Shown piece after piece: positions 1,742 to 63,684 of a stretch of DNA of 64,000 bases; position 1 is the first letter of the stretch, and each line of letters starts with the position of its first letter. The stretch is from NCBI GenBank assembly GCA_017478725.1, contig JAFVDD010000006.1, positions 1,169-65,168 on the forward strand, in the 5' to 3' direction. A model generated the notes under the pieces. It had not been told where the DNA came from. It saw nothing but the letters and a program-made list of their open reading frames with translations, and made no database searches. The stretch comes from Paludibacteraceae bacterium. Lineage in GTDB: Bacteria > Bacteroidota > Bacteroidia > Bacteroidales > Paludibacteraceae. The position numbers and the translations under genes were made by a program.

Positions 1742-2124
1742 AAGTAAATAAGTTTTAAGTGGTGCCTACTCTTTGTCGGATTTTCGGCTTGCTCCGCAAT
1801 AAGGAGACATAAAAGAAAGCGGGACTGCATATTGCTGTTCCGCTTCATAGGGCTCTGGTATTGCCTTCACATCCGAACAAGCAACACGAGTCCACGCTGA
1901 ATATGTATCAGATACACGCCTATACCCAATGCTCCTGCTATGGATAAACAAGGAGCAAGCGTGAGAATACACACCCTCGGGACGCCTTGTGTTGCGATGT
2001 TTTGGATGTTGATGAATTTACCAGATTCTATGAAGCCAAAACAAAGCGTGTAAGACGCCTTTCATTATGTCTTGGATTTGTTCACCCTATAGTGGACCTA
2101 TAGCGATGAAATCAAATACGAGTG

Positions 2125-2910: not shown

Positions 2911-2950
2911 CGAAATATCGACATGTCGACATACCGACAAATCGACAGAC
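2911..2950. repeat. period-8 degenerate tandem array, CGACATGN family (5 units)
   Basis: The units read cgaaatat cgacatgt cgacatac cgacaaat cgacagac. The array is intergenic between the yhcH-like gene and glgB. Confidence 0.9.
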
Positions 2951-2971: not shown

Positions 2972-5101
2972 ATGGCAACGAAGAAAGTTAAACATCTGCC
3001 GATCGTGGCTCGGGATCCGTATCTGGAGCCATATGAGGGCGCATTGCAAGGCAGAGCCGATTACGCTGTACGCAAGGAGCAGGAGATCACCAGCGGTGCC
3101 AAACTCGCCGACTGGGCATCAGGATACCTCTATTTTGGGCTTCACCATAAAAAGCCTTACACGGATGCGAAAGGCAAGAAAGTAGCGGGCGAATGGATCC
3201 TCCGTGAGTGGGCTCCCAATGCCACGGCGATATATATCAAAGGCGACATGAACGGCTGGCAGAAAGACGAGAGATACCGTCTGCAGCCAGTCGGCAACGG
3301 TGTATGGGAGGCCAAACTGCCGGAGGATGCTATCCAGCATGAACAGCTGTATAAACTGCTGGTGGAATGGCAAGGCGGGTACGGCGAACGTATTCCGAGT
3401 TATGCGCGCCGCGTGGTGCAGGACGAGCAGACCAAGATTTTCTCCGCACAAGTGTGGGACGAGGAGGAGTATGTTTGGCGGAATAGAAAGCCGTCAGAAG
3501 TCAGCCGTCAGAAGTCAGCCGTCAGAAGTCAGCTGAAGGCAGAAAGCCCCCTCTTTATCTACGAGTGCCATATAGGCATGTCGAGCGAGCAGGAGAAAGT
3601 GAACAGTTATGAGGAGTTCCGCCGCGACGTGCTGCCGCGCATAGCCGAGTTGGGTTACAACTGCATCCAGATCATGGCCATTCAGGAGCACCCCTATTAC
3701 GGCAGTTTCGGGTATCACGTGAGCAATTTCTTTGCCGCGAGCAGCCGTTTCGGTACGCCGAACGAGTTGAAAGCATTGATAGACGATGCGCACGGAAGAG
3801 GCATGAAAGTGATCATGGACCTGGTACACAGCCACGCGGTGAAGAACGAGCTGGAGGGCTTGGGCAATTTTGACGGCACGGGCTATCAGTATTTCCACGA
3901 TGGTGCGCGGCGAGAGCACCCGGCCTGGGACAGTCTCTGCTTCAACTACGGCAAGAACGAAGTGCTGCATTTTTTGCTGAGCAACTGCAAGTTCTGGATT
4001 GACGAATATGACTTCGACGGGTTCCGCTTTGACGGCGTGACCTCGATGATTTACCTCAGCCATGGTCTGGGAGAAGATTTCAACGGCTACGGCAGCTATT
4101 TCAACGGCAACGAAGACGGCGATGCGATCATGTATCTGACGCTGGCGAACAAAGTGATTCACCAAGTCAAACCTGACGCCATCACGATAGCGGAAGAGAT
4201 GAGCGGCATGCCTGGTCTGGCCGCAAAGATAGAAGACGGCGGCGTAGGATTCGACTACCGTCTGGCGATGGGTATTCCGGATTTCTGGATCAAGTATATC
4301 AAAGAAGTGAAGGACGAGGACTGGAAAGCCGGACATATATTGTATGAAATGACCAACAGGCGTGAGGACGAGAAGACCATCAGTTATGCCGAGAGCCATG
4401 ACCAGGCGCTGGTAGGCGACAAGACAATCATCTTCCGGCTGGTAGATGCCGACATGTACTGGCATTTCGAGCACGGTCATGCCAACTATATGGTGGACCG
4501 CGGCATTGCGCTGCACAAGATGATACGTCTTGTGACGGCGAGCACCATCAACGGCGGCTACCTGACCTTCATGGGCAACGAGTTCGGCCATCCCGAATGG
4601 ATTGATTTTCCGCGTGAGGGCAACGGCTGGAGCTACAAATACGCCCGCAGACAATGGAGCCTTGTCGATAATCCGAACTATTTCTTCTCGGACCTCAACC
4701 GTTTTGACGAGGCGATGATTCACCTGCTGAGGGAGAACCTGTTTGTAGAGAAACCTACCGCCGCGGAGAAGAAATACGGCATCGGCAACCACCTGCCGTG
4801 GGTAATGAAATGTTGCGACAACGAGGGTGACCAAGTGGTGGCTTATACGCGCGGCGATCTGGTGTTCATCTTCAACTGGAACGGCCAGCGGTCGTTTGCC
4901 GATTACGGCATCCTGGTGCCAGAAGGCAAATACCAAGTGGTACTGAACACCGATGCGAAAGAGTTCGCCGGCTTCGGGCTGAGCGACGACAGCGTGGAGC
5001 ATTTCACGCAGCACGACGAGCTTTATGCGAAGGACGGGAAGGGCTGGCTGAAGATGTACCTGCCCGCAAGAAGCGCCGTGGTGCTGAAAAGGGGTAAATG
5101 A
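2972..5101 (+). CDS. glgB: 1,4-alpha-glucan branching enzyme (GH13, eukaryote-like type)
   Basis: 709 aa with the GH13 conserved regions DLVHSH, GFRFDGVTSM, AEEMSG and SHDQ, preceded by an N-terminal CBM48-like segment. Confidence 0.9.
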   Translation: MATKKVKHLPIVARDPYLEPYEGALQGRADYAVRKEQEITSGAKLADWASGYLYFGLHHKKPYTDAKGKKVAGEWILREWAPNATAIYIKGDMNGWQKDERYRLQPVGNGVWEAKLPEDAIQHEQLYKLLVEWQGGYGERIPSYARRVVQDEQTKIFSAQVWDEEEYVWRNRKPSEVSRQKSAVRSQLKAESPLFIYECHIGMSSEQEKVNSYEEFRRDVLPRIAELGYNCIQIMAIQEHPYYGSFGYHVSNFFAASSRFGTPNELKALIDDAHGRGMKVIMDLVHSHAVKNELEGLGNFDGTGYQYFHDGARREHPAWDSLCFNYGKNEVLHFLLSNCKFWIDEYDFDGFRFDGVTSMIYLSHGLGEDFNGYGSYFNGNEDGDAIMYLTLANKVIHQVKPDAITIAEEMSGMPGLAAKIEDGGVGFDYRLAMGIPDFWIKYIKEVKDEDWKAGHILYEMTNRREDEKTISYAESHDQALVGDKTIIFRLVDADMYWHFEHGHANYMVDRGIALHKMIRLVTASTINGGYLTFMGNEFGHPEWIDFPREGNGWSYKYARRQWSLVDNPNYFFSDLNRFDEAMIHLLRENLFVEKPTAAEKKYGIGNHLPWVMKCCDNEGDQVVAYTRGDLVFIFNWNGQRSFADYGILVPEGKYQVVLNTDAKEFAGFGLSDDSVEHFTQHDELYAKDGKGWLKMYLPARSAVVLKRGK
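3491..3534. repeat. 3 x 14-nt tandem repeat inside glgB (in frame)
   Basis: The unit ccgtcagaagtcag occurs exactly three times (3491-3532) and is translated as PSEVSRQKSAVRSQ. Confidence 0.95.
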
Positions 5102-6801: not shown

Positions 6802-8265
6802 ATGTTGGAAATCTATAATTCGTTAACACGATTCAAAGAGACGTTCAAGCCGCTGCACGAAGGGCATGTGGGCATGTATGTGTGCGGGCCGACCGTTTAT
6901 GGCGACGCGCATTTAGGACATGCCCGTCCGGCTATCACATTTGATGTGCTGTACCGGTATCTGCAGTATTTAGGATACAAGGTGCGCTATGTACGCAATA
7001 TAACGGATGTAGGCCATCTGGAGCACGACGCGGACGAGGGTGAGGACAAGATAGCCAAGAAAGCGCGGCTGGAGCAGTTGGAGCCGATGGAGGTGGTGCA
7101 ATACTACACCAACAGATATCACCGCGACATGGCGGCGCTGAATGTGCTGCCGCCTTCCATCGAGCCTCATGCGAGCGGCCATATCATCGAGCAGATTGCC
7201 TTTGTGCAGAAGATCCTTGACCGCGGCTACGCCTACGTAGCGAACGGATCGGTGTATATGGACGTAGAGAAATACGCCAAGGACTACCCGTACGGCAAAC
7301 TGAGCGGAAGGAACCTACATGATATTATCGCCGAGACGCGTGAACTGGACGGACAGAGCGAGAAGAAACACAGCTATGATTTCGCCCTTTGGAAAAAAGC
7401 AGCGCCCGAACATATCATGCACTGGCCGAGCCCGTGGAGCGAAGGTTTCCCCGGCTGGCATATGGAGTGCTCGACGATGGGCACCAAGTATCTGGGTGAG
7501 CAGTTTGATATCCACGGTGGCGGTCTGGACCTCATTTTCCCTCACCACGAGGCGGAGATAGCACAGAGTTGCGCCGCGCTGGGCAAGGAGAGCGTGCACT
7601 ATTGGATGCACAACAACATGATCACCATCGCCGGCAAGAAAATGGGTAAGAGTTACAACAATTTCATTACGTTGGAGCAGTTCTTCAGCGGCAATCACCC
7701 GTTGCTGAGCAAAGCTTTCGGCCCGATGGTCATAAGGTTCTTTATCTTGCAGGCTCATTACCGCTCGACGGTTGATTTCTCGTCGGAGGCGTTAGAGGCA
7801 GCAGAAAAAGGATTGCAGCGGTTGCAGGAAGCGTATGCGAGACTACAGAAGATCCAGCCTTCAGCCGTCAGCAGTCAGCCGTCTGATCTGCGTCAGCGTT
7901 GCCAAGAGGCCATGGATGACGATCTGAACACGCCGTTTGTGATTGCGGCGCTGTTTGACAGCGTGAAGGCTATCAATACCGTATGGGACGGCAAAGGCGC
8001 TATCAGCGAAGCCGACCTGAATGAACTGCGCGAGGTATGGAAGACTTACGCCATAGACATTCTTGGACTGCGGCTTGAAGAAACAGGCAACGGCGATGAC
8101 AGCCAGCAGAAAGCCTTCCACGGCGCCATTGATCTGCTATTAGGCATCCGTCTGCAGGCCAAGCAGAACAAGGACTGGGCGACCTCCGACAAGATACGCA
8201 ACGAACTGACCGCCCTCGGCTTCCAGATCAAAGATACCAAAGACGGATTCGAATGGAGTATCTAA
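6802..8265 (+). CDS. cysS: cysteine--tRNA ligase
   Basis: 487 aa with a class I HIGH-type motif (AHLGHARP), KMGKS (the KMSKS equivalent), and [16 protein letters not shown]. Confidence 0.95.
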
Positions 8266-9037: not shown

Positions 9038-9111
9038 TAGCGGGACCCAGGATTGAACTGGGGACCTCATGATTATGAATCATGCGCTCTAACCAGCTGA
9101 GCTATCCCGCC
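9038..9111 (-). tRNA. tRNA with CAT anticodon (Met; a lysidine-modified Ile2 cannot be excluded)
   Basis: The manual cloverleaf is: acceptor GGCGGGA/TCCCGCT, D arm GCTC-AGCTGGTTA-GAGC, anticodon stem CATGA/TCATG with loop TTCATAA, T arm CCCAG-TTCAATC-CTGGG. Total 74 nt. Confidence 0.9.
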
Positions 9112-11877: not shown

Positions 11878-11951
11878 CGGGGAGTGGCGCAGCCCGGTAG
11901 CGCAACGGTCTGGGGGACCGGAGGTCGCGTGTTCGAATCACGTCTCCCCGA
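11878..11951 (+). tRNA. tRNA-Pro (GGG)
   Basis: The manual cloverleaf is: acceptor CGGGGAG/CTCCCCG, D arm GCGC-AGCCCGGTA-GCGC, anticodon loop CTGGGGG (anticodon GGG, G37), T arm GCGTG-TTCGAAT-CACGT. Total 74 nt. Confidence 0.9.
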
Positions 11952-36801: not shown

Positions 36802-36841
36802 ACTAGTCAGCTAGTCAACTAGTCGGCTAGTCAACTAGTCC
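36802..36841. repeat. period-8 CTAG array (5 x CTAGTCNN)
   Basis: CTAG occurs at 36803, 36811, 36819, 36827 and 36835. The last unit supplies the gpmI stop codon. Confidence 0.95.
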
Positions 36842-38432: not shown

Positions 38433-38894
38433 TTAACGCGCAAGTTTCATCACTTGCGCTATGGTGCGCGGGTCGTCCGCTTCGCGGAGCGACTGGCGTT
38501 TGTCGTAGCTGTGCTTGCCCTGGCAGAGCGCAATCTCCATCTTGGCGAGACCCTTCTCGTTGATGTAGAGCAGCAGCGGCACAATCGTTTTGCCGGTGTC
38601 CTTGGTGGCTTTTTCCAGTTTGCGTATCTCGCGGCGCTGCAGCAGCAGTTTGCGGTCGCGCTTGGCCTCGTGGTTGGCGTAGGAACCGAAACGGTACTCG
38701 GCTATATGCATCTGCTTGACGTACATCTCGCCGTGCTCCACCTGACACCAGCTGTCCACCAGCGAGGCTTTGCCCTCACGGATGGATTTGATCTCTGTGC
38801 CGAAGAGCTGGATTCCGGCGGTGTAGCGGTCCAGAATGATATATTCAAACCTCGCCTTGCGGTTTTCTATCCGTATGTTGCTCTTCTGTCTCAT
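38433..38894 (-). CDS. smpB: SsrA-binding protein SmpB
   Basis: 153 aa with NRKARFEY ... GTEIKSIR ... and a basic C-terminal tail. Confidence 0.93.
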   Translation of the reverse strand: MRQKSNIRIENRKARFEYIILDRYTAGIQLFGTEIKSIREGKASLVDSWCQVEHGEMYVKQMHIAEYRFGSYANHEAKRDRKLLLQRREIRKLEKATKDTGKTIVPLLLYINEKGLAKMEIALCQGKHSYDKRQSLREADDPRTIAQVMKLAR

Positions 38895-40011
38895 TATTAC
38901 TATACTCTTCCTTGCTTTGACCGTCGGCTGACTGTCGGCTGACCGTCGGGGTGGCCGCGGTGTTGACCGCCACGCGTTTATACTTCTTCTGTCTCTGCTC
39001 CCATCGCTCGCGGGCGTATTGCTGCATGTCGATCACAGTGTCGTTCTCGTCAATGATCTCCAGGCCGAAAATCGTCTCGATGATATCCTCCAGCGTCAGG
39101 ATGCCTACGAAACAGCCGTACTCGTCTATCACCTGCGCTATCTGGCTCTTTTGTTTGAGCATACTGTCAAAGATAGTGCCGAGCGTGAGATCCTGGTCGA
39201 AAGCCGGCAGCGGACGTTTGATGGAGCCGAGCGTTTTGCGGAAATGGTCTTCGGTCAGATCCTCCAGCGCGTCGTTGCGCAGAACATAGCCGGTGATGTA
39301 TTCCGGCGAGGCGGGGCTGTATAGCGGAATACGCGAGAAATGGTCGTATTCGTCGCTGTCGTAATAGGCGCGGAGGGTCATGTTCTCCGGCGCAATCTTG
39401 GCCACCACGCGCGGCGTCATCACATCGTAGGCATGGATGGTGTCGAGACGCATGAGGTTCGTGAAAATCTTGTTCTCATCCTCATCTACCACGCCTTCTT
39501 CTTCGCCTACATTGACCATCGCCAGCACTTCCTCGCGGCTGACCGACGGATCGTCTTCGTCGGTTGGGAAAGCCTTGGTAATCAGCTCGATGACCCATAC
39601 CAGCGGGTAGAGCACAACAATCAGCAGGCGTATCATGCGTGCGGCAAAACCCATCAGTTCGCGCCAATAGGTAGTGCCGATCATCTTGGGTATGATCTCC
39701 GAGAAGATAAGTATCAGGATTGTAGTGAGGGCGGAAACGAGTCCGAACCATTTCGAGCCGAAAAGGATAGTAGCCTGTGCGCCCACACCGGCGGCACCGA
39801 TAGTGTTGGCGATGGTGTTGAGGGAGAGGATGGCGGCAAGAGGCCGGCCGGTGTCCTCCTTGTAACTCTCCATCAGTTTGGCGGGCGCGTAGCCCTCCTC
39901 GAGCCGCAGATTGATATAACTGATCGACGTGGACATCAACACCGACTCCAGCACGGAGCACAGGAAACTGACACCCATCGCCAGCAGCAAATACAATAAA
40001 AGTAATCCCAT
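38845..40011 (-). CDS. CNNM/DUF21 + CBS-pair hemolysin-family (CorC/HlyC-like) membrane protein
   Basis: 388 aa with an N-terminal DUF21 4-TM domain and a CBS pair. Its low-complexity C-terminal tail overlaps smpB by 50 nt. Confidence 0.8.
   Translation of the reverse strand: MGLLLLYLLLAMGVSFLCSVLESVLMSTSISYINLRLEEGYAPAKLMESYKEDTGRPLAAILSLNTIANTIGAAGVGAQATILFGSKWFGLVSALTTILILIFSEIIPKMIGTTYWRELMGFAARMIRLLIVVLYPLVWVIELITKAFPTDEDDPSVSREEVLAMVNVGEEEGVVDEDENKIFTNLMRLDTIHAYDVMTPRVVAKIAPENMTLRAYYDSDEYDHFSRIPLYSPASPEYITGYVLRNDALEDLTEDHFRKTLGSIKRPLPAFDQDLTLGTIFDSMLKQKSQIAQVIDEYGCFVGILTLEDIIETIFGLEIIDENDTVIDMQQYARERWEQRQKKYKRVAVNTAATPTVSRQSADGQSKEEYSNNETEEQHTDRKPQGEV
38918..38950. repeat. 3 x 11-nt tandem repeat in the C-terminal tail of the CNNM gene
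   Basis: The units read tgaccgtcggc tgactgtcggc tgaccgtcggg. Confidence 0.9.
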
Positions 40012-40127: not shown

Positions 40128-40553
40128 ATGACAAAGTTATCGGAAATATTAGCTATAACCGGCAAGCCCGGTTTGTACAAACTGGTCAGCCGCGGCAACA
40201 ACATGCTGATTGTGGAGAGTCTGGTGGACGGCAAACGTACGCCTACCTATGCCCGCGACAAGATTGTGGCGCTGAGCGATGTGTCGATGTTCACCAACGC
40301 CGATGATGTGCGCCTGAGCGAGGTGCTCACCTCCGCCGGCAAGAAAGAGGGGTTGCAGCCCGTGGCGATGGATCCCAAGAAAGCCGCCAACGCGGAGCTG
40401 CAGGCATGGTTTGACGAGGTGCTGCCCGACTGGGACCGCGACCGGGTCTATCCTTCGGATATCCGCAAACTGATCTCGTGGTACAACATCCTCGTGAAGG
40501 CCGGTATCACCGATTTCAGCCTGGAGGAAGAGCCCGCCGAAGAGGAAAAATAA
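40128..40553 (+). CDS. conserved hypothetical protein (DUF5606-like)
   Basis: 141 aa. The N-terminus ILAITGKPGLYKLVSRGNNMLIVESLVDGKRTPTYA matches my memory of this Bacteroidota family. Confidence 0.55.
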   Translation: MTKLSEILAITGKPGLYKLVSRGNNMLIVESLVDGKRTPTYARDKIVALSDVSMFTNADDVRLSEVLTSAGKKEGLQPVAMDPKKAANAELQAWFDEVLPDWDRDRVYPSDIRKLISWYNILVKAGITDFSLEEEPAEEEK

Positions 40554-40598
40554 CTAGTCAGCTAGTCAACTAGTAAACTAGTCGCCTAGTCAGCTAAA
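40553..40598. repeat. period-8 CTAG array (5 x CTAG + CTAA)
   Basis: CTAG occurs at 40554, 40562, 40570, 40578 and 40586, and CTAA at 40594. Confidence 0.95.
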
Positions 40599-42763: not shown

Positions 42764-42808
42764 ACTAGTCAGCTAGCAAGCTAGAAACCTAGTCAGCTAG
42801 TCAACTAC
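42764..42808. repeat. period-8 CTAG array in the 5' leader of the giant gene
   Basis: CTAG occurs at 42765, 42773, 42781, 42789 and 42797, then CTAC at 42805. Confidence 0.95.
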
Positions 42809-55230: not shown

Positions 55231-55251
55231 ACTAGTCAGCTAGTCAACTAA
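55231..55251. repeat. short period-8 CTAG array (CTAG, CTAG, CTAA)
   Basis: CTAG occurs at 55232 and 55240, and CTAA at 55248. The last unit is the stop codon of the minus-strand OMP gene. Confidence 0.9.
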
Positions 55252-57215
55252 AACCTGAACGTTGCTCCCACCAGGAAATTGATACCCTGGGAGGTGTAGC
55301 CGTAATAGATGTCGTTCTTGTAGTGAATGAAATTGTTCACTTGGGCAAAGAGCGTCAGGTTGGGCTTGGGCTCCGGGCGGAGCGGTAACTCCCCGCCCTC
55401 TGAGTGCTGATGGCTTACAGCTGAACGCTTACCTCCTACCCACATGTTATACTGCATGCCGAGATCCAACTCTACGGTAGGTTTGAGCAAGTGCTCGCCA
55501 TCCGTCGCCAGCGCCAGACGGCTGCCGGCAAAATGGTTGTCGGAATAGAGCGACCAGTGCTTGTCTATCTTCCCGTCCACGCGCAGGCCTAACTGCCAGT
55601 TGGCATGGTCATATACAGTGCGGCTGTTGTTGGCAAGAACATCGGTGAGTTCCGTGCAAGTGGAGGCGTACTGATAGCCGTTGTTCTCATAGCGCAGGGC
55701 ACGCCAGAAATAGTAGTCCCCGTACAGGTTGACGCGTACGATATCACGATAGTGGTAGTTGAACTGGGCTCCCACCTTTCCGCGGCTGTAGTCGCAATAG
55801 GTATAACTGAAATCGCCGGCATGCACAAAAGCATTGAACGCCGCTGGCATATAGCGTGCGCTGTCGGTCACGGCAATGAGGGTGGTGGTGTTCAGATAGA
55901 GAGCGTAGCCTCCGTGGAGCTCGATGAGCAGGTCGCGGTAGGGCCGTATATGGAAGCCCAGTTCGGCATCCACCGGCGTATGCGGCGCTGCGTGGTGGGA
56001 GATGATACCTGCATGGATAACACGGTAGCGGTTCTGCTCCATGAACGCCTGCAACGTACCCATGGCGTGGGAGCCGGTGGCGTCGGCATAGAGCGTGAGC
56101 CATTTCTTGGCTATCTGCGCCTCCAGATGCACATGAGGCGACGGGGCAAAACTGAGGTTGTTGACGCCGGAGAGGCTGTTCTGGCCGCGACCTATGTTCA
56201 TATCCAGATTGACGCCCACGTGGAGCTGCACGCGACGGCTGTTGTAGGCATAATAGGGTTCCAGACGGATATTATGGCGGCTGTTGTACATCGTGGAGGG
56301 AATAGTTGCCGCCAGATTGCCGTTCAGGCTGAGGAAATTGTTCTGCACATAGAGTACGGCTCCTACGTGGTGGAAATCACGGCTCCAGTCGAACGACGCA
56401 TGTGTACGTATCTGGTGCTCGGCTACGGCATTGGGTTTGGCAAAGAGCATATAGCCTGTCTGCACGCGGTACTGCACCTCCTGTTTGGCGTTGGAGCGGA
56501 CACCTATATAGGCCTCTGCGGTCCAGAGGGAGGTCTGGTCGGCAGGGGTGATAGTGCGCGGCTCGGGATAGAGCGTTTTGGTGCGATCCCATGCGCCGGC
56601 ACTGCCTTGTGCGTAGTCGTAGAAACGGCCGTATTTGTTGTAGAACACATTGCCGCCGTTGATGCCGAAATAGACGCTGCAAGCGGAGAACGGGTGGGAG
56701 AAATCAAAACCGAGCTTGGTTTTGCTGAGTGCTCTGAGTCCCCATTGGGCACGATGATGGGCATACACGTCCAGTATGGAGCGTTTGCCGTCGTCCAGAC
56801 GGTAGCCGAAATCAAAGAGCGTGTTCGTGTGTCCCAGTCCGCCGCGTACGTAGCCGTTGTAGGACTGGCCTTCGCCGAATCGTGTGGGCTGAGAGAGCAG
56901 TGGCTGCAAGCCGGTTTCTGTTTTCACCTCTACGGCATAGTTGGAATAGCTGACCTCAACCGGCTCAATAGTTGTTTCCACGATAGCGGGTTTGGTAGCC
57001 ACCTTGCCGGCTGCCCGGATGACAGGCTGGAAATCACGCTCTACCGTCACGGAGCGGTTGAGTGCACTGTCGCTCTGCGCCGAAGCAGGAGTAAGGAATA
57101 AGGACAATGGAATAAGGACAAAAATGTATCGGCTGATAGTATTCGCTCTTTTGTCTTTCAGCGAAGCGGTCTTTATTCTTTCAGCGAAGCGGTCTGTATT
57201 ACTCGTCATCATCAT
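55248..57215 (-). CDS. large outer-membrane beta-barrel protein (putative porin-like; no TonB plug recognised)
   Basis: 655 aa with a signal peptide ending PASAQS, alternating aromatic/Gly-rich strands throughout, and the C-terminal OMP signature GATFRF. It overlaps the upstream TPR gene by 17 nt. Confidence 0.65.
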   Translation of the reverse strand: MMMTSNTDRFAERIKTASLKDKRANTISRYIFVLIPLSLFLTPASAQSDSALNRSVTVERDFQPVIRAAGKVATKPAIVETTIEPVEVSYSNYAVEVKTETGLQPLLSQPTRFGEGQSYNGYVRGGLGHTNTLFDFGYRLDDGKRSILDVYAHHRAQWGLRALSKTKLGFDFSHPFSACSVYFGINGGNVFYNKYGRFYDYAQGSAGAWDRTKTLYPEPRTITPADQTSLWTAEAYIGVRSNAKQEVQYRVQTGYMLFAKPNAVAEHQIRTHASFDWSRDFHHVGAVLYVQNNFLSLNGNLAATIPSTMYNSRHNIRLEPYYAYNSRRVQLHVGVNLDMNIGRGQNSLSGVNNLSFAPSPHVHLEAQIAKKWLTLYADATGSHAMGTLQAFMEQNRYRVIHAGIISHHAAPHTPVDAELGFHIRPYRDLLIELHGGYALYLNTTTLIAVTDSARYMPAAFNAFVHAGDFSYTYCDYSRGKVGAQFNYHYRDIVRVNLYGDYYFWRALRYENNGYQYASTCTELTDVLANNSRTVYDHANWQLGLRVDGKIDKHWSLYSDNHFAGSRLALATDGEHLLKPTVELDLGMQYNMWVGGKRSAVSHQHSEGGELPLRPEPKPNLTLFAQVNNFIHYKNDIYYGYTSQGINFLVGATFRF

Positions 57216-60174
57216 TTACCTCCTTTTCTGCGGGTTGTTCTATCTTGTCCAGTTTGGCGAGACGGTCGCTGATGAGTGCGGGTATATCATCGCCGGTGAT
57301 GGTGTAGTTCTGCTGTAGTGCGAGCAGGTACTGGCGCGCCTGGAATGTCTCGCCGCGGCGGGTGTATATATCGCTCAGCAGGATGAGTGCGCGTGCGAGC
57401 CAGTATTGCTGGCTGGTGCTCATGCCGGTGAACGACATCACCTCTGCTTCCGCCTCGTCAAGCTGACCTGACTCAAACCGGCTTTGTGCCAGCAGGTATT
57501 TGGCTTCGGCGCCCTGCGCTGTGCGTACCTCGCTGGACAGCTGTTTGAGGTCCGGCTGGGCTTTCTCCCATTCGCCTTGAGCCGTATAGGCTTTGGCGCG
57601 GCAGTAGAGCGCTTCGTTGCGCACTGCCTCGTCCGGCTGGTCGTTCAGCAGTTGGCCGGCTATGTCGATAGTAGCCGTATGGCGTCCCAGCAGTGATGAG
57701 CAGCGCAGGATACCTACGCGGGCCACGATACTGTTCTCGCGGGTGGACGCCAGTGCGTTCATGCGATAGAAAGCCTCCAGCGCCGCTGCGTAGTCTCCGC
57801 GGTCGTAGTAGATCTCTGCCATACGTGTGGCTGCTTCCTCCTGATAGGGATTGGCTGCGAGATCAGCCAGCTGGCTGTATTGCTCCAATGCTTCCGCATT
57901 TCTGCCCAGGCGGTAATACGAGTCGGCAAGATAGTAGAGAGCCGTGGTGCAGTATCTGCCTCCGGCACAGTAACGCCGTATATATTCGCTCAGCGGCTCC
58001 GTGGCTTTCTGATATGCCGCCTGCATATACTGCATCTCTGCGGCGGCAAAGAGCAGGCTGTCCTCGCGTGTAGTGACGGTCATATTCAGTTTGGCGAGAT
58101 TCTTGGTATAGGCGAGGTACTCGTCTATACGGTTTTGCTCCACATACAGGGCCTGCAGGGTCTCCAGCGCCGTGTAGGCCTCCTCTGTAGCCGGATATTT
58201 CTCTATGGTCTGGCGGTAGGCGGCTATAGCCTGGTCGGTCTGGTTGAGGTTGCGGTAGAGCATTGCGCGCTCCAGCGAGGCCTTGCGGGCAAGGGCGGAG
58301 TGGGGATAGGTGTTGAGCAGTTGCTCATAGGTGGTGATAGCTCCGCGCTCGTCGTTGAGCTGAAGTTGCGCACGCGCTGTCTCATACATACCGTCGTCGG
58401 CATAGTCGGATTTGGGATAACGGGTGGTCAGGGTGCGCAGCGCTGCTATCTTGTCGTTGTATTGGCGCAGCAGACCCAGTGCATAGCCGCGCTGGAAGAG
58501 CGCATAGTCGGCTCCTACGGCCTGGAGGTTGCTTACCTGGGTGTAATAGCTGATAGCCTGTTTGAAATCACGGGCGTTGAAATAGCAATCGCCTATACGG
58601 TTGAGCGCATCGGCATAAGTGGCATCGCCCGTATCGGCTCCGTCTATATAGGTGGTGAAAGCTGTGCGTGCCTGATCGTAATGGTTTTGCGAGAAAGCGC
58701 AGTAGCCTTCCAGGTAGCGCGCTATCCGGTAGTTGGCCGATTGCTTGGCGTCATGGCGGGCGAAGAAGGACTGCAGGTCGCTCTCGCATGCGCTGTAGTC
58801 ACGCAGACGGTATTCCGCTTCGGCACGTATATAGAGTGCCTCGGTGGTGTAGCGGTCGCTCTCGTTACGGTGGCTGACCACTTCGCCTGCGCGGTCAATA
58901 GCCTGCTGCATCTTGCCTTGCAGAAATCCGTCGGCTGCCAGTTGGTAGCGCAGATACTGCTTGGTCTCCAGCATCTTGGGAGTGGGGTCGGAGATACTGT
59001 CCAGCGTGGCAATGGCTGCAGCGTAGTTCTTGCTTTGCATCAGCGCCGAACTCAGCAACTGGTAGATATTGCTCTCGTATTTGGAATCAGGAAAAGCATG
59101 CAGGAAATCATTGAACGCCTTGACCGACTCGCCCAAAGCCGACGAAGAACGATAGGAGCAGAGGGTGTAGTTGTAGGCAGCCTCCTCGGTGATAGCAGGC
59201 GTGAGGCGGTAGCTGGCGGCAGCCTGATACCACAGCTGTGCCTGCTCGGGTTGGTTCATATGGATATAGGCATGACCGATGGTCAGGCAGGCCGACTCGC
59301 TCAGCGTGTCCGGCTGCTGTTTGATCAGTTTCAAATGGCGGATGGCGTCCGGATAGCGGTTCAGTCTGTACTCGGCATGACCGAGCAGGTACAGGTCCTC
59401 GCGCCGCAACTCCTCCTTGCGCTCCTGAGCGTCCTGTTCGTATTGCTGCAACTGCTCAGCCGCCTCTTCGTAGCGCCCGTCGCGATAGCGTATCTCGCCC
59501 AGCATACGGTGCAGCTCGCCGGATAAATCATTGTCCGGCTGGGTGCGCAGCAGCATGACAATACGCTCCTCCGCCTCATCATAGCGTCCCTGGATATAGT
59601 CGGTCTGCGCGATGAAATAGGGCACAGTCTTGGCGTATTCGGGCATCTGCTCCAGACGCTTGAGTGAAGGCAAAGCCTTGTCGTACTCGCCCGTTTTGTA
59701 CATACAATAGGCGTAGTAATAGTCGGCGCGGGTGGAATAGCGGTTGTCGGATTTGGACAGATGACCGAAATAGATAGCCGCCCGCCCGTAGTCCTGCAGC
59801 ATCAGATAGGAGTAGCCGCGATAGAAGGAATAGTCGTGCTGGTGAGCCCGTCCGAGTGCGCTGATGTCAATAGGCTCCAGTACCTTGAGGGCTTGTTTGT
59901 AATGACCGCGCTCTACCTGCAGTATTCCCTGCATCAGATTGACTTCGTCGGCAAACGTGGTGTAGGGAAACTCCTGCATATAGGCCTTCAAATCGCGCTG
60001 GAGCACCGAGGTGTTGCCGCTACGGCTGTCAAAACGCTCTGCCAGTGCGTTGTAGCGCACTTCCATCTCCGTCGTCTGCGCGAAAGCTCCGCTTAATGGC
60101 AAAAGATAAAAGACAATCGACAGGACGATATGACGACATGTCGATATGTCGAAAAACTTAGTTAGTAATGTCAT
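57199..60174 (-). CDS. 991-aa secreted multi-TPR protein (YbgF/CpoB-like repeats)
   Basis: A signal peptide is followed by TPR-type A..Y.....Y..A periodicity along the whole length. Its ATG overlaps the potD stop (ATGA at 60171-60174). Confidence 0.7.
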   Translation of the reverse strand: MTLLTKFFDISTCRHIVLSIVFYLLPLSGAFAQTTEMEVRYNALAERFDSRSGNTSVLQRDLKAYMQEFPYTTFADEVNLMQGILQVERGHYKQALKVLEPIDISALGRAHQHDYSFYRGYSYLMLQDYGRAAIYFGHLSKSDNRYSTRADYYYAYCMYKTGEYDKALPSLKRLEQMPEYAKTVPYFIAQTDYIQGRYDEAEERIVMLLRTQPDNDLSGELHRMLGEIRYRDGRYEEAAEQLQQYEQDAQERKEELRREDLYLLGHAEYRLNRYPDAIRHLKLIKQQPDTLSESACLTIGHAYIHMNQPEQAQLWYQAAASYRLTPAITEEAAYNYTLCSYRSSSALGESVKAFNDFLHAFPDSKYESNIYQLLSSALMQSKNYAAAIATLDSISDPTPKMLETKQYLRYQLAADGFLQGKMQQAIDRAGEVVSHRNESDRYTTEALYIRAEAEYRLRDYSACESDLQSFFARHDAKQSANYRIARYLEGYCAFSQNHYDQARTAFTTYIDGADTGDATYADALNRIGDCYFNARDFKQAISYYTQVSNLQAVGADYALFQRGYALGLLRQYNDKIAALRTLTTRYPKSDYADDGMYETARAQLQLNDERGAITTYEQLLNTYPHSALARKASLERAMLYRNLNQTDQAIAAYRQTIEKYPATEEAYTALETLQALYVEQNRIDEYLAYTKNLAKLNMTVTTREDSLLFAAAEMQYMQAAYQKATEPLSEYIRRYCAGGRYCTTALYYLADSYYRLGRNAEALEQYSQLADLAANPYQEEAATRMAEIYYDRGDYAAALEAFYRMNALASTRENSIVARVGILRCSSLLGRHTATIDIAGQLLNDQPDEAVRNEALYCRAKAYTAQGEWEKAQPDLKQLSSEVRTAQGAEAKYLLAQSRFESGQLDEAEAEVMSFTGMSTSQQYWLARALILLSDIYTRRGETFQARQYLLALQQNYTITGDDIPALISDRLAKLDKIEQPAEKEVNDDDE
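60118..60157. repeat. period-8 array, CGACATGN family (5 units), inside the 5' end of the TPR gene
   Basis: The units read cgacagga cgatatga cgacatgt cgatatgt cgaaaaac. They are translated as FFDISTCRHIVLS. Confidence 0.9.
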
Positions 60175-61418
60175 CTTGCAAGTTTGATTTCATTCCACAT
60201 CTCCAGCAGCATCTCCTGGCTCTCGCCGGCGTCGTGCATGAGGGCGCAGCGGTCAATAGTGCTCTTGTCGGCATAATAGACCGGATTGAGGTGCAGCGCA
60301 TGCGGATCAAGCATCTCTCCCTCTACCTCAATCGGCTCCTCGCCGAAGAAATAGCTGGCATCCACACTCTCCGGCCACTCCTCCTCGTCGTTTTGCTCCT
60401 CCAGAATAGTAGCGGCGGCATTGACACCTCCGGCGCAGGAAACATAGCCGATCTCGTTCATGTTAGCCAATGCGTTGTCGGCGCGGCACATATAGTCGAT
60501 GAAATAGGTGGCGGCTTTGGTGTTCTTCGCATATTTGGGAATTACCCAGCCGTCAAACCACACGTTAGAACCCTCCTCAGGTACGATGTAATCGAGCAGC
60601 ACGCCTACTTCGGCAGCCTCTTCAATCGCAAACTGTGCGTCGCCCGACCAGCTCAGGTTCATCCATGCCTTGCCTTTGGTCATCTCCTCTTTGCCAAAGT
60701 CAACCTCCCATCCGCATATCTGTTTCTTGGCTTTCAGGAGCACTTGTTTCACAGCCTCGACGCGCTCGGGAGTGATGTCGCGCACCAGTTCCTCGCGGGT
60801 CACTTTGCCTGCGGCAATCTGGTCTTTGAACGTATAGAGAACAAGCACCGAATACACATCGCGGAAAGCGTCCTTCATGAGTACGCGGTTCTCAAACTTG
60901 GGATTGAGAATAGCTCCCCATGTTCGCAGGTCCTCGCGGTTGACGTACTGCGGGTTGTAGATAAAACCTGTGGTGCCCCACATATAGCCGGCAGTGTAGT
61001 CCTTCACTTGGATGTCAGCGCTCGGCGCCATCTGCTGGAACTGATTTACTACATACGGCGCGATGTTGTCGAAATACCAAATGCTGTCGGGAATCAGGTC
61101 TTTCCGGATGGGTTGGATAAGGCCTTTTTTCAGCATACGCTCGATGATGTACTCCGACGGGCAGAATACGTCGTAGTCCTCATGACCGATCTCAATCTTG
61201 GTAAGGGCGGTCTCGTTGATATCAAAAGTCTCATAAACGAGTTGCACTTTCTCGCCTGTTTGGTCGAAATACCATGATTCGAAGTTCTCCTTGACGTCCT
61301 CGTCTATATAGTCCGCCCAGTTGAGCACTTTGAGTTGGTGTGCACGGTCAGCACCGCCGCAGGAAATCATGAGAAATACAAAGGTTGAAAGTACAAAGTA
61401 CAAAGAGATTTTTTTCAT
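60171..61418 (-). CDS. potD: spermidine/putrescine ABC transporter substrate-binding lipoprotein
   Basis: 415 aa with lipobox MISC and a PotD/PotF-type solute-binding fold (LKVLNWADYID, FCPSEY). Confidence 0.8.
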   Translation of the reverse strand: MKKISLYFVLSTFVFLMISCGGADRAHQLKVLNWADYIDEDVKENFESWYFDQTGEKVQLVYETFDINETALTKIEIGHEDYDVFCPSEYIIERMLKKGLIQPIRKDLIPDSIWYFDNIAPYVVNQFQQMAPSADIQVKDYTAGYMWGTTGFIYNPQYVNREDLRTWGAILNPKFENRVLMKDAFRDVYSVLVLYTFKDQIAAGKVTREELVRDITPERVEAVKQVLLKAKKQICGWEVDFGKEEMTKGKAWMNLSWSGDAQFAIEEAAEVGVLLDYIVPEEGSNVWFDGWVIPKYAKNTKAATYFIDYMCRADNALANMNEIGYVSCAGGVNAAATILEEQNDEEEWPESVDASYFFGEEPIEVEGEMLDPHALHLNPVYYADKSTIDRCALMHDAGESQEMLLEMWNEIKLAR

Positions 61419-61450: not shown

Positions 61451-61497
61451 TTATCTGTTATCTGGTTATCCGGAATTCTGGAAATCCGGCATTCTAA
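61451..61497. repeat. period-8 array, ATTTCCGG family (6 units)
   Basis: The units read ttatctg ttatctgg ttatccgg aattctgg aaatccgg cattctaa. The last unit contains the potC stop codon (61494-61496). Confidence 0.85.
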
Positions 61498-62849
61498 TTC
61501 TTCTTATCCTTGTCTGCTCTTATATTGATGACGATGAGCACGGTCAGCATAACGAGCAGAATGATGGTGAATAGCGGCCTCAGTTCGGGCGTCAGACCTC
61601 CCTTGCGGGCATCGGAATAGATGAAGGTACTCAGCGTCTCCAGTCCGCCGCTGCCTTTGGTGAAGAAGGTCACGCCGAAATCATCTACCGAGAGTGTCAG
61701 TGCGAGTATGAATCCTGATAGCATACCCGGCCACAACTCCGGCAGCATCACCATCCTGAGCGCTTGCGCAGGTGTGGCGCCGAGGTCCAGTGCCGCCTCG
61801 TAGGTATTGGGGTTCATCTTGCTGAGCCGCGGCAGTACGCTGAGTACAACGTACGGCGTACAGAATACCACATGCGCAATACATACGGTCGCCAATCCCT
61901 GGCTCATACCCAATGCTACGAATAGCAGGAAGAGTGATATACCCGTAATGATATCCGGATTGATCATCGGCACGGAGTTGAGGAAACTGACTACTTTGCG
62001 CTGACGGGCACGCATGTTATAGATGCCTATCGCCGCCAATGTACCCAAGAGGGTGGAGCAGACCGCCGCAATGAGGGCGATGACTACGGTGTACCAGATG
62101 GCACTGTTGAGACCCGCACCGGCATGACCGGTAAAGAGATTGGCATACAGGTTCATGGAAAATCCTGTCCAGTTGCCCAGCACCTTGCTTTCCGTGAACG
62201 AGAATACGGCAATCAGGGCGATAGGTGCGTACAGCACAATGAGCAGCAGCCATAGATACAGCTGCGAACCTATATGTCTCCGGTTGCCCATCCGCTTGCG
62301 TCGTAGTGTCTCCTGTTCTACGGCCGGCAACTCACGCTCTTTCCTGCGACGGCGGACCACCATGCCAGCATACACGATACCCGTTGCCAGCAGCAGGCCG
62401 GAGAACACAAACCATATCCAGCCGTAGCTGCGGCTGACGGATGTCTGTTCGCGGACGTACTGCTCAAACACGTCATAGGCGTTCTGTACCAAAACGCGCT
62501 TCGTACGGTTGCGAGGGATGGCATTTGTCCTCCATACTACCCATTCGCAGTTGTTCTCGTCGGTGTAACTATAGATACTGTCGCACCATGTACCCAACTC
62601 GTCTATGGGCCTGTTGGCAAATACATAGTCCAGCGAGTCCTGAAAGCGGAAAGCCGATTGCTGAATGCGGATATTCACTTTCTCCGCCGCATATGTATCG
62701 GGAAACTCGTCCAGCAATGTGACGGTCCCCGTTGCAGCTACCTTCAGTTCGTACGTCAGGTTCGACTGGGCAGAAGCACTCAAGCTGAGCAATATTACTA
62801 TCGACATGACGACATGACGACATGACGATATGTCGAAAAATCTTTTCAT
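61494..62849 (-). CDS. potC: ABC transporter permease PotC fused to a 186-aa N-terminal signal-peptide + extracytoplasmic domain + TM segment
   Basis: 451-aa ORF. Residues 187-451 (ATG at 62289-62291) form a normal-length PotC with a binding-protein-dependent permease core. Residues 1-186 have no stop separating them from PotC. The ATG at 62847-62849 overlaps the potB stop (ATGA). Confidence 0.75.
   Translation of the reverse strand: MKRFFDISSCRHVVMSIVILLSLSASAQSNLTYELKVAATGTVTLLDEFPDTYAAEKVNIRIQQSAFRFQDSLDYVFANRPIDELGTWCDSIYSYTDENNCEWVVWRTNAIPRNRTKRVLVQNAYDVFEQYVREQTSVSRSYGWIWFVFSGLLLATGIVYAGMVVRRRRKERELPAVEQETLRRKRMGNRRHIGSQLYLWLLLIVLYAPIALIAVFSFTESKVLGNWTGFSMNLYANLFTGHAGAGLNSAIWYTVVIALIAAVCSTLLGTLAAIGIYNMRARQRKVVSFLNSVPMINPDIITGISLFLLFVALGMSQGLATVCIAHVVFCTPYVVLSVLPRLSKMNPNTYEAALDLGATPAQALRMVMLPELWPGMLSGFILALTLSVDDFGVTFFTKGSGGLETLSTFIYSDARKGGLTPELRPLFTIILLVMLTVLIVINIRADKDKKN
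62802..62841. repeat. period-8 array, CGACATGN family (5 units), inside the 5' end of the potC fusion ORF
   Basis: The units read cgacatga cgacatga cgacatga cgatatgt cgaaaaat. They are translated as FFDISSCRHVVMS. Confidence 0.9.
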
Positions 62850-63640
62850 ACCAGTCCTCCTTTCTCTCCTCCTGAGTCGTGGTCGCCGAAGAACGACGTC
62901 AGACCGATAATCACGAGCAGTACGAGGCTGAGCACAGCTCCGTAGTTGAGCAGGTCGGTCGTGGTGATGTAGTCCTGAATGAGCGAGCCGAACAGTTTGA
63001 TGTTGTTATGCGTCAGCAGTTCGGCTATAGCGAATGTGCTGACGGTAGGCATGAATACCATAACAATGCCGCTGTAAATACCCGGCATCGAGAGAGGGAC
63101 AATCACTTTCCAAAAACTCTGTGCGCGGTTGGCGCCCAGATCCTGGGCCGCCTCGATGAGCGAGGTGTCCATTTTTTGGAGGGTGTTGTAGATAGGATAA
63201 ATCATAAACGGCAGGTAGTCGTAGCAAAGGCCGAAAAGCAGTGCGCCTTCGCCAAGCGGCAAGCCGAACATATTGAAAAGTTCTACCGTAGCTACCGTGC
63301 GGAGCAGAAAATTGATCCACATCGGCAGAATAAAGAGCATCGCCATCACCTTGGGCGTACGGAAATCCTCCATCGCCATGATATAGGCGGCGGGATAACC
63401 GATCAGCAGACAGATGAGGGTGTTGAATACAGCTATCATGACCGAGTAGAGAAAGGTCTGGATAGCTTCGCTATGGGTGAAGAACTTCGCGAAATTGCGG
63501 AGCGTGAAGGTGCCGTTGATATCCGTCAGGGCATAGTAGCCCACCAATATCAGCGGCAGCACGACAAATAGCAGCATGAACAGGATATACGGCCATGCCC
63601 ATGTCCGCCGCGAAGATACTATTTGAATCAACTTACTCAT
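62846..63640 (-). CDS. potB: spermidine/putrescine ABC transporter permease PotB
   Basis: 264 aa with 6 TM helices and an EAA-type loop (IEAAQDLGANRAQSFWKVIVP). Confidence 0.85.
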   Translation of the reverse strand: MSKLIQIVSSRRTWAWPYILFMLLFVVLPLILVGYYALTDINGTFTLRNFAKFFTHSEAIQTFLYSVMIAVFNTLICLLIGYPAAYIMAMEDFRTPKVMAMLFILPMWINFLLRTVATVELFNMFGLPLGEGALLFGLCYDYLPFMIYPIYNTLQKMDTSLIEAAQDLGANRAQSFWKVIVPLSMPGIYSGIVMVFMPTVSTFAIAELLTHNNIKLFGSLIQDYITTTDLLNYGAVLSLVLLVIIGLTSFFGDHDSGGEKGGLV

Positions 63641-63654
63641 TGTTGTTCTGGTTT

Positions 63655-63684
63655 TCTAGTTGACTAATTGGCTAGTCGGCTAGT
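63655..63684. repeat. period-8 CTAG array (CTAG, CTAA, CTAG, CTAG)
   Basis: CTAG occurs at 63656, 63672 and 63680, and CTAA at 63664. The CTAG at 63672 supplies the potA stop, so PotA ends ...KLAD encoded by the array. Confidence 0.9.

Follow-up and report, generated by a model that had tools for sequence, protein, structure and literature searches.

Degenerate octamer arrays within two predicted signal peptides of a Paludibacteraceae operon: a probable origin in dispersed repeat DNA

The window analysed here is a stretch of 64,000 nucleotides (nt) from a rumen bacterium of the Paludibacteraceae (assembly GCA_017478725.1, contig JAFVDD010000006.1, positions 1,169 to 65,168), and its subject is a family of short tandem arrays, two of which lie within the 5′ ends of neighbouring, unrelated genes of a pot-TPR operon. 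These genes encode a potC fusion and a TPR protein predicted to be secreted, and the arrays would be read in frame as nearly the same N-terminal peptide. The probable explanation is that dispersed repeat DNA landed in the tolerant signal-peptide region, is read through stop-free and has been copied between neighbouring gene starts. An earlier note on this DNA, made from its letters without database searches, had drawn attention to the shared peptide; the arrays are mainly untranslated, genome-wide repeat DNA, which that note had not seen. The family unit is the octamer CGAYATRN, and its three 40-nt arrays of five units are named A1, A2 and A3. They are listed here together with the two host open reading frames (ORFs).

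Positions 61494-62849, minus strand: ORF of the potC fusion, 451 aa, with a predicted signal peptide, a domain of ~130 aa to which no family was assigned, one transmembrane helix and an ABC permease domain (266-443).
Positions 57199-60174, minus strand: ORF of the TPR protein, predicted to be secreted, 991 aa.
Positions 62769-62849, minus strand: predicted signal-peptide region of the potC fusion, 27 codons, MKRFFDISSCRHVVMSIVILLSLSASA before Q.
Positions 60079-60174, minus strand: predicted signal-peptide region of the TPR protein, 32 codons, MTLLTKFFDISTCRHIVLSIVFYLLPLSGAFA before Q (ending ...SGAFA before Q).
Positions 2911-2950, plus strand: A1, units cgaaatat cgacatgt cgacatac cgacaaat cgacagac.
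Positions 60118-60157, minus strand: A2, five 8-nt units, cgacagga cgatatga cgacatgt cgatatgt cgaaaaac.
Positions 62802-62841, minus strand: A3, units cgacatga (three times), cgatatgt and cgaaaaat; in the mRNA sense the unit reads [T/A]CATRTCG.

The coordinates that the earlier note gave for the three arrays are exact, and Tandem Repeats Finder (TRF) calls period 8 at each of them, with match percentages of 92% at A3 and 84% at A2. A two-unit pattern, CGAYATGNCGAYATG, with two mismatches or fewer (<=2) allowed, is found 20 times in the window against 1.78 expected from 100 shuffles, the best of which gave 5 matches and none 20; 16 of the 20 matches fall inside A1, A2 or A3. A1 is indeed intergenic: it lies untranslated in the 62-nt spacer that separates a DUF386 gene (2454-2909) from the glgB-like gene behind it (2972-5101), in the customary 5′-leader position and orientation of the family. 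A2 and A3 lie just inside the 5′ ends of their genes, at codons 7-19 of the TPR ORF (peptide FFDISTCRHIVLS) and codons 4-16 of the potC fusion (peptide FFDISSCRHVVMS), and the two translations quoted in the note are exact as well. Both are reversed relative to the usual leader orientation, which is the stop-free way round; in the plus orientation A3 has stops in all three frames, and in the orientation in use it is open in all three.

Similarity between the two translated arrays goes beyond the common unit. A2 and A3 are 91% identical over 44 nt in like orientation, and in the mRNA sense both read TTTTTCG ACATATCG WCATGTCG TCATRTCG TCMTGTCG AT.GT. The same derived variant units thus stand in the same order, which points to copying between A2 and A3 rather than independent growth. 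A1 and A2 show 80% complementarity because the unit is palindromic, and an antisense pairing of the two was set aside for that reason. When the 5′ ends of 820 gene pairs of the window were compared, the potC-fusion/TPR pair was the sole outlier, with a nucleotide score of 69 against 26 for the next pair and a BLOSUM score of 78 against 40. An assembly artefact was ruled out, since independent ENA and Logan assemblies concur.

The position of the arrays within the two genes is also alike. The potC ATG (62847-62849) overlaps the potB stop codon (62846-62848) as ATGA, the TPR ATG (60172-60174) overlaps the potD stop codon (60171-60173) in the same manner, and both arrays are placed between this stop-overlapping start codon and an A-x-A cleavage site followed by Q. 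A positive n-region is present in both (MKR...R11 in potC; K6 and R14 in TPR), followed by a hydrophobic core and small residues at -3 and -1 (VVMSIVILLSLSA plus ASA before Q in potC; IVLSIVFYLLPL plus AFA before Q in TPR). R11 and R14 are array-encoded, so that the arrays contribute the Arg closing the n-region (..S.CRH) together with the first residues of the h-region (VVMSIV / IVLSIV). This agrees with the earlier proposal that the arrays form the n-region and the start of the h-region of both predicted signals. Export and cleavage of the potC-fusion and TPR proteins would be expected from this anatomy.

Comparison with other genomes, whose loci and gene calls are designated below by L and P numbers, places the window in a recurrent pattern. 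The orthologues recovered number 19 for potC-N and 19 for TPR. Every one of the potC-N orthologues starts with M[KR] and carries a signal peptide up to ..AQ followed by SNLTYEL; 17 of the 19 TPR orthologues carry one up to ..AQ followed by T[TS]EME, and the other two are calls that start past the cleavage site. The segment from start to cleavage site is internally repetitive and varies from genome to genome, the arrays at that one position being TCCTAGGN, TTAAAAA, TTTGTCA, TACAATG or none. In L118, potC has four units of TTCCTAGGN (read FLGFLGFLGLL) and TPR four units of NTCCTAGGN (read LGILGLLGFLGIL). L122 has TTAAAAA four times in potC (read MRELKIKNLKFK) and TTACGTTA-type units in TPR and in the third gene; potC and the third gene of L123 have TTTGTCA-type units. 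The unit is TACAATG in L160 and TTGGTCA in L161, the TPR gene of L121 carries CGACATAT / CGGTATAT, and the third gene of L120 carries CGGTATAT. A plain signal without any array is found in L123 TPR, P0023 and P0033. The ends are therefore kept, with other arrays or none between them, and the case first noticed in the window is one of a recurrent kind. No orthologue was found with a like peptide and no repeats at the DNA level: that of L121 TPR, IFDISTYRYIGISIV, has octamer repeats too.

Non-orthologous start regions that align are within-genome pairs only (scores 54-69, against a median of 17), and within a genome neighbouring genes have one array family in common. On comparative evidence the earlier reading holds, namely that a common array gives the two unrelated proteins their common N-terminal peptide. 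The L122 array TTAAAAATTAAAAATT.A.AATTCAAAATT (TTAAAAA) is coding in potC and lies in the 5′ untranslated region (UTR) of the TPR gene, so that the element is defined at the level of nucleic acid and not by its peptide. A conserved regulator-binding site was tried and rejected as a candidate for the arrays, the units being entirely different between related genomes. The note had further suggested that such arrays generate or remodel secretion signals. Remodelling is borne out by the orthologues, in which arrays have been repeatedly inserted and swapped within existing signals; generation of a signal from nothing found no support, because a signal peptide is present in all orthologues whose sequence extends to the N-terminus.

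Turnover can be followed at closer range in L162, which has 83% nucleotide identity to the window across the operon. Its potC array has five units as in the window, but these are homogenised to GTATTTCG instead of TCATGTCG. A second kind of element takes part in this turnover, a hairpin repeat cassette.

Positions 57074-57195, minus strand: hairpin repeat cassette of ~122 nt in the leader of the next gene (55248-57215), DRFAERIKTASLKDKR...IFVLIPLSLFLTP.

The hairpin has a folding energy of about -30 kcal/mol. Its A-rich arm is read as DRFAERIKTASLKDKR, a Lys/Arg-rich n-region, and its complementary T-rich arm as the hydrophobic core IFVLIPLSLFL. In the window the cassette stands at the head of the third gene, in L120 (1227-1360) and L162 (4855-4976) at that of the TPR gene; the L162 copy is 78% identical to that of the window over 122 nt, and the third gene of L162 has a decayed array, MKKNSFDIPGFRG. 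In L121 TPR (about 1120-1170), 44 nt of the cassette stand reversed, likewise within the translated frame.

The octamers belong to a larger population of repeats. TRF reports 25 arrays in the window (score at least 40), compared with 0-3 in ten shuffles, and periods 7 and 8 are dominant. Within 64 kb, CGAYATRN is present at three loci, ACTAGTCN at five and a GTCAGCCG-type unit at three, the last inside three ORFs. The arrays outside the CGAYATRN family include the following.

Positions 36802-36840, 40552-40596, 42765-42807, 55231-55250 and 63648-63683: ACTAGTCN / GCTAGTCN family with palindromic core GACTAGTC.
Positions 63648-63683, minus strand: the ACTAGTCN-family array of the operon, CTAGYYRR octamers, spanning the potA stop codon and the potB leader.
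Positions 61388-61405, minus strand: 7-nt array, GTACTTT in the mRNA sense, inside the potD lipoprotein signal peptide.
Positions 3485-3548, 7855-7886 and 38918-38949: AGCCGTC / AGAAGTC 7-nt family, in frame.

The ACTAGTCN family is found in a 5′UTR just past a TAnnTTTG-type promoter and in 3′UTRs before terminators, besides the potA stop and potB leader. The AGCCGTC / AGAAGTC sites lie in a linker of the glgB-like enzyme (KPSEVSRQKSAVRSQ), in a 487-aa ORF (6802-8265) and at the C-terminus of ORF 38845-40011. The array in the potD signal peptide is clearer in L162, where TTTGTAC occurs three times.

Genome contigs were scanned with the pattern CGAYATGN x3, and about 20 Bacteroidales loci were informative among the matches listed. 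These matches are mainly perfect microsatellites with octamer units in organisms of unrelated phyla (Streptomyces, Veillonella, planctomycetes). In the Prevotellaceae and Paludibacteraceae loci listed, CGAYATRN mostly lies in 5′ leaders and decays via CGAAAAAN into an A-rich tract that precedes the ATG. The listed Veillonella matches (L011, L027, L039, L062, L075, L076, L104, L109, L110) have perfect CGATATGG in 3-10 copies at one conserved locus, the classic behaviour of a variable simple-sequence repeat, in contrast with the degenerate arrays of the window. A scan of metagenome contigs with a pattern specific to A2 and A3 gave 35 loci, mostly intergenic or in 5′UTRs, among which there were no further N-termini of the potC/TPR type and no copy-number variants of the window loci. 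A six-frame ORF test of the scanned loci was noisy at high GC and usable, after inspection, for L045 and L114 only; in the Prevotella lipoprotein of L045, three such arrays are predicted to be translated, again after an ATGA overlap.

From these observations a sequence of events can be proposed. A2 and A3 would be two copies of one degenerate octamer array, drawn from the dispersed 7-9-nt tandem arrays and small palindromic cassettes that rumen Bacteroidales carry as a lineage-wide pool, with relatives of the arrays in Prevotellaceae. Such DNA ordinarily lies in untranslated leaders and spacers beside gene boundaries. The pot-TPR operon has no spacer, because its start codons overlap the upstream stops, and here the array is found at the very beginning of the ORF, with the start codon on one side of it and the hydrophobic core and cleavage site on the other. 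It could be tolerated and read through because a signal peptide needs little beyond a positive N-terminal end and a hydrophobic stretch. The survivors would be inserts of stop-free orientation and in-frame length only. Local copying, by gene conversion or template switching, would then put one array into neighbouring genes, which would explain why they carry the same one. Leaders turn over fast between related genomes. Translation of the arrays looks incidental, not selected for the peptide, and the arrays themselves may be neutral.

A number of points weigh against this proposal. Arrays keep occupying the same operon junctions in most genomes and one unit family recurs at several loci, both of which pure neutrality explains poorly. 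Gene conversion and template switching are proposed mechanisms, the signal peptides were assigned by inspection and by conservation among orthologues, and the case that the arrays are translated is comparative. Gene callers also disagree: an alternative call on DNA identical to the window (P0040) starts potC at M15, giving 437 instead of 451 aa, and the NCBI entry MBR1877577.1 starts TPR at a TTG at codon 25, after the array, giving 967 instead of 991 aa. If such starts were the true ones (potC M15; TPR TTG25 or a non-canonical codon), the arrays would be untranslated and these intercistronic leaders open by chance, which would accord with the usual location of the family in 5′UTRs and with the in-frame ATG that the last array unit supplies in potC. 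This is quite unlikely given the anatomy of the shortened proteins. Ahead of its cleavage site TPR offers no further ATG or GTG in frame, and its sole alternative start, TTG25, yields MPLSGAFAQ; the protein without its array would therefore lack a hydrophobic core and hence a signal peptide, yet 17 of the 19 orthologues have a full one with the same cleavage site. Started at M15, potC would be left with a signal of 13 residues that lacks a positive n-region. In L122 potC and L121 TPR, there is no in-frame ATG, GTG or TTG between array and cleavage site, and the frame is open through the octamer arrays in every genome examined. The potC orthologues examined retain the upstream ATGA with its M[KR] start, the potB/potC overlap being kept in L118, L122, L123 and L162; the potD and TPR genes overlap as ATGA in L118, L123 and L162 and as TAATG in L120 and L121, and are separated by a spacer in L122 and L124. 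Comparison of the orthologues speaks for the upstream starts and, with them, for translation of the arrays.

The arrays might instead act as RNA or DNA elements in cis, hairpins or unstructured tracts of translation initiation regions that set initiation or coupling, with their own translation a by-product. Bacteroidota make little use of Shine-Dalgarno pairing. Arrays do cluster at start codons, 13 of 25 in the window lying within -80..+120 of a start (12.7% of the DNA) and 32 of 55 over seven loci (11% of the DNA), an enrichment that is confounded by their preference for non-coding DNA and draws six of its seven loci from one operon. The potA/B, potB/C, potD/TPR and TPR/third-gene junctions each bear an array in several genomes, and the double use of the L122 array, as UTR for TPR and as coding sequence in potC, would suit such a role. 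The isolated arrays fold, at -16.1 kcal/mol (z -3.7) and -11.8 kcal/mol (z -2.5), with hairpins that start 15-24 nt past an unpaired AUG, but in a context of 86-96 nt the folding is not significant (z -0.6 and -1.8). The units are unrelated between genomes and opposite in properties, from AU-rich unstructured TTAAAAA to GC palindromes such as CCTAGG; array-free orthologues exist (L123 TPR, P0023, P0033); other arrays lie in 3′UTRs or upstream of promoters, and others again within housekeeping ORFs and internal loops of proteins; and an Rfam scan gave no family at or above the gathering score at the arrays, its only matches being two tRNAs and a DUF805b motif. Such a role is unlikely on this balance. 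A function as a contingency switch, in which slipped-strand gain or loss of 8 nt would shift the frame and turn potC or TPR off, as in opa, draws on a unit length not divisible by three, on a position in signal-peptide-coding DNA like that in opa (PMC3960869), on the three perfect TCATGTCG units of A3 and on the range of 3-10 copies among the Veillonella matches listed. It is very unlikely here: A2 has no identical adjacent units and A3 only three, so that there is no homogeneous tract of many units, L162 retains the five-unit length at 83% identity, and the products of the two genes, an ABC permease of polyamine type and a periplasmic TPR protein, are not surface antigens. In five assemblies made from other samples (L115-L117, L163, L164), all sequence that overlaps the window matches it at 100%, the potC start included; these assemblies may all be one strain, and they are uninformative on slippage. 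Least probable of all, and hardly to be expected, is selection for the common peptide itself, for instance as a recognition motif routing both proteins to one export or assembly factor. The neighbouring proteins of each genome do have a leader in common, and the differences between the A2 and A3 peptides are conservative (S/T, V/I, M/L), but related genomes have wholly different peptides, the L122 array serves as UTR for TPR and as coding sequence in potC, one cassette is read both ways with unrelated peptides as the result, and cleavage is predicted to remove the signal peptide.

Landing of repeat DNA in a tolerant signal-peptide region, with read-through and local copying, accounts best for these data. 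A bolder extension, which we regard as improbable, is that arrays and cassette are interchangeable start-region modules, actively copied by a start-targeted process (template switching or site-preferring insertion) and kept for tuning translation initiation or coupling. If so, mobile repeat DNA would be the main source of signal peptides in this lineage, with one palindrome strand supplying a Lys/Arg-rich n-region and its complement a Leu/Phe/Val-rich hydrophobic core.

Small non-autonomous repeats of the REP/BIME and MITE type accumulate at gene boundaries and can form hairpins. The arrays described here resemble such repeats (PMC10969869) in size, in their place at gene boundaries and in hairpin potential; unlike them, the octamer arrays yielded no terminal inverted repeats, target-site duplications or associated transposase. 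Another comparison is with Rickettsia palindromic elements (RPEs), which are inserted in frame in unrelated ORFs (PMC10969869). In both cases a dispersed family is read in frame, so that unrelated proteins gain a common peptide at tolerant positions, and in both copies are found in and out of ORFs (here A1 is untranslated, A2 and A3 lie in ORFs, and there are copies in Prevotellaceae 5′UTRs and in the Prevotella lipoprotein ORF). RPEs are palindromic, about 150 bp long and mostly in metabolic genes (PMC10969869), whereas the present elements are 40-nt tandem octamers at signal peptides. The ~122-nt cassette at 57074-57195 is nearer to an RPE than the octamer arrays are, and it alone resembles a palindromic element of 100-150 bp.

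The STRR sequences of cyanobacteria, which Vioque is said to have described in 1997, are reportedly dispersed heptamer arrays. Dispersed arrays of the heptamers GGGAATC / GGGGAYT are found in Xanthomonas and Nostoc (PMC4692102), and like the present ones they repeat a short unit in tandem at many loci with a preference for gene boundaries. They lie within about 50 bp of ORF boundaries at co-directional genes, vary in length and sequence between close relatives, are under-represented within coding sequence and are G-rich or quadruplex-forming, and their function is unknown (PMC4692102). The repeats of the window differ in that the unit is an octamer and the host belongs to the Paludibacteraceae rather than to the cyanobacteria or xanthomonads, and more broadly in that several families of 7-9 nt, often with palindromic cores, occur in Bacteroidales, repeatedly inside ORFs. 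In Neisseria opa genes, CTCTT coding repeats are located in the leader-peptide region (PMC3960869), and there too the tandem unit is not a multiple of three and lies within signal-peptide-coding DNA (8 nt at codons 4-16 and 7-19 here). The opa tracts are long and perfect, have a slippage rate of about 1e-3 per generation and switch surface antigens on and off (PMC3960869). The units here, by contrast, are degenerate, show no length variation among the compared assemblies and belong to a family that is mostly untranslated elsewhere, and the genes do not encode antigens. None of the compared systems unites degenerate, dispersed 7-9-nt arrays, in-frame reading in signal peptides and sharing by neighbouring genes, and a full-text literature search found no account of such arrays in Prevotella or other Bacteroidales.

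These arrays offer a concrete and repeatedly observed route from non-coding repeat DNA to protein sequence. Signal peptides would serve as landing pads that tolerate almost any stop-free insert, and the leaders of neighbouring genes show unusually fast turnover and concerted evolution. Annotation is affected as well: with start calls as inconsistent as those for potC and TPR, secretome predictions for metagenome-assembled genomes of rumen Bacteroidales will be too. Should the arrays act on translation initiation, this phylum, in which initiation signals are still poorly defined, would gain a new class of start-region element.

Several minor observations concern the same operon and repeat family. 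The middle of the potC N-domain has a loop that is a second hot spot for arrays. L160 (4440-4883) has TACAATG both at the N-terminus and in this loop, and in L161 (252-581) the loop holds nine units of GTTACGG, read as VTGYGLQ three times. The window has a weak trace of the same kind, listed here with its Rfam matches.

Positions 62637-62666, minus strand: potC loop with weak, decayed 7-nt periodicity (ATTCAGC AATCGGC TTTCCGC TTTCAGG), seen by eye and not reported by TRF.
Positions 1763-1797, minus strand: DUF805b cis-regulatory motif, 41.7 bits.
Positions 9038-9111 and 11878-11951: tRNAs.

In L118/L119, L120, L122, L123, L160 and L161, potC or TPR is split into two ORFs by a frameshift or stop (TGG to TAG in L161, for example), which could be assembly error or real pseudogenisation. 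A Shine-Dalgarno-like AAGGAGG (62856-62862, minus strand) lies 7-13 nt upstream of the potC ATG, within the C-terminal codons of potB (EKGG), and is kept across genomes (equivalents in L118, L122, L123 and L045); this is unexpected for Bacteroidota, which rarely use such pairing. Lastly, in the usual 5′UTR orientation of the family, CGACATGA units form overlapping minimal ORFs (ATG ACG ACA TGA) in which each stop overlaps the next ATG (62802-62825, plus strand; also L081, L010 and L019).

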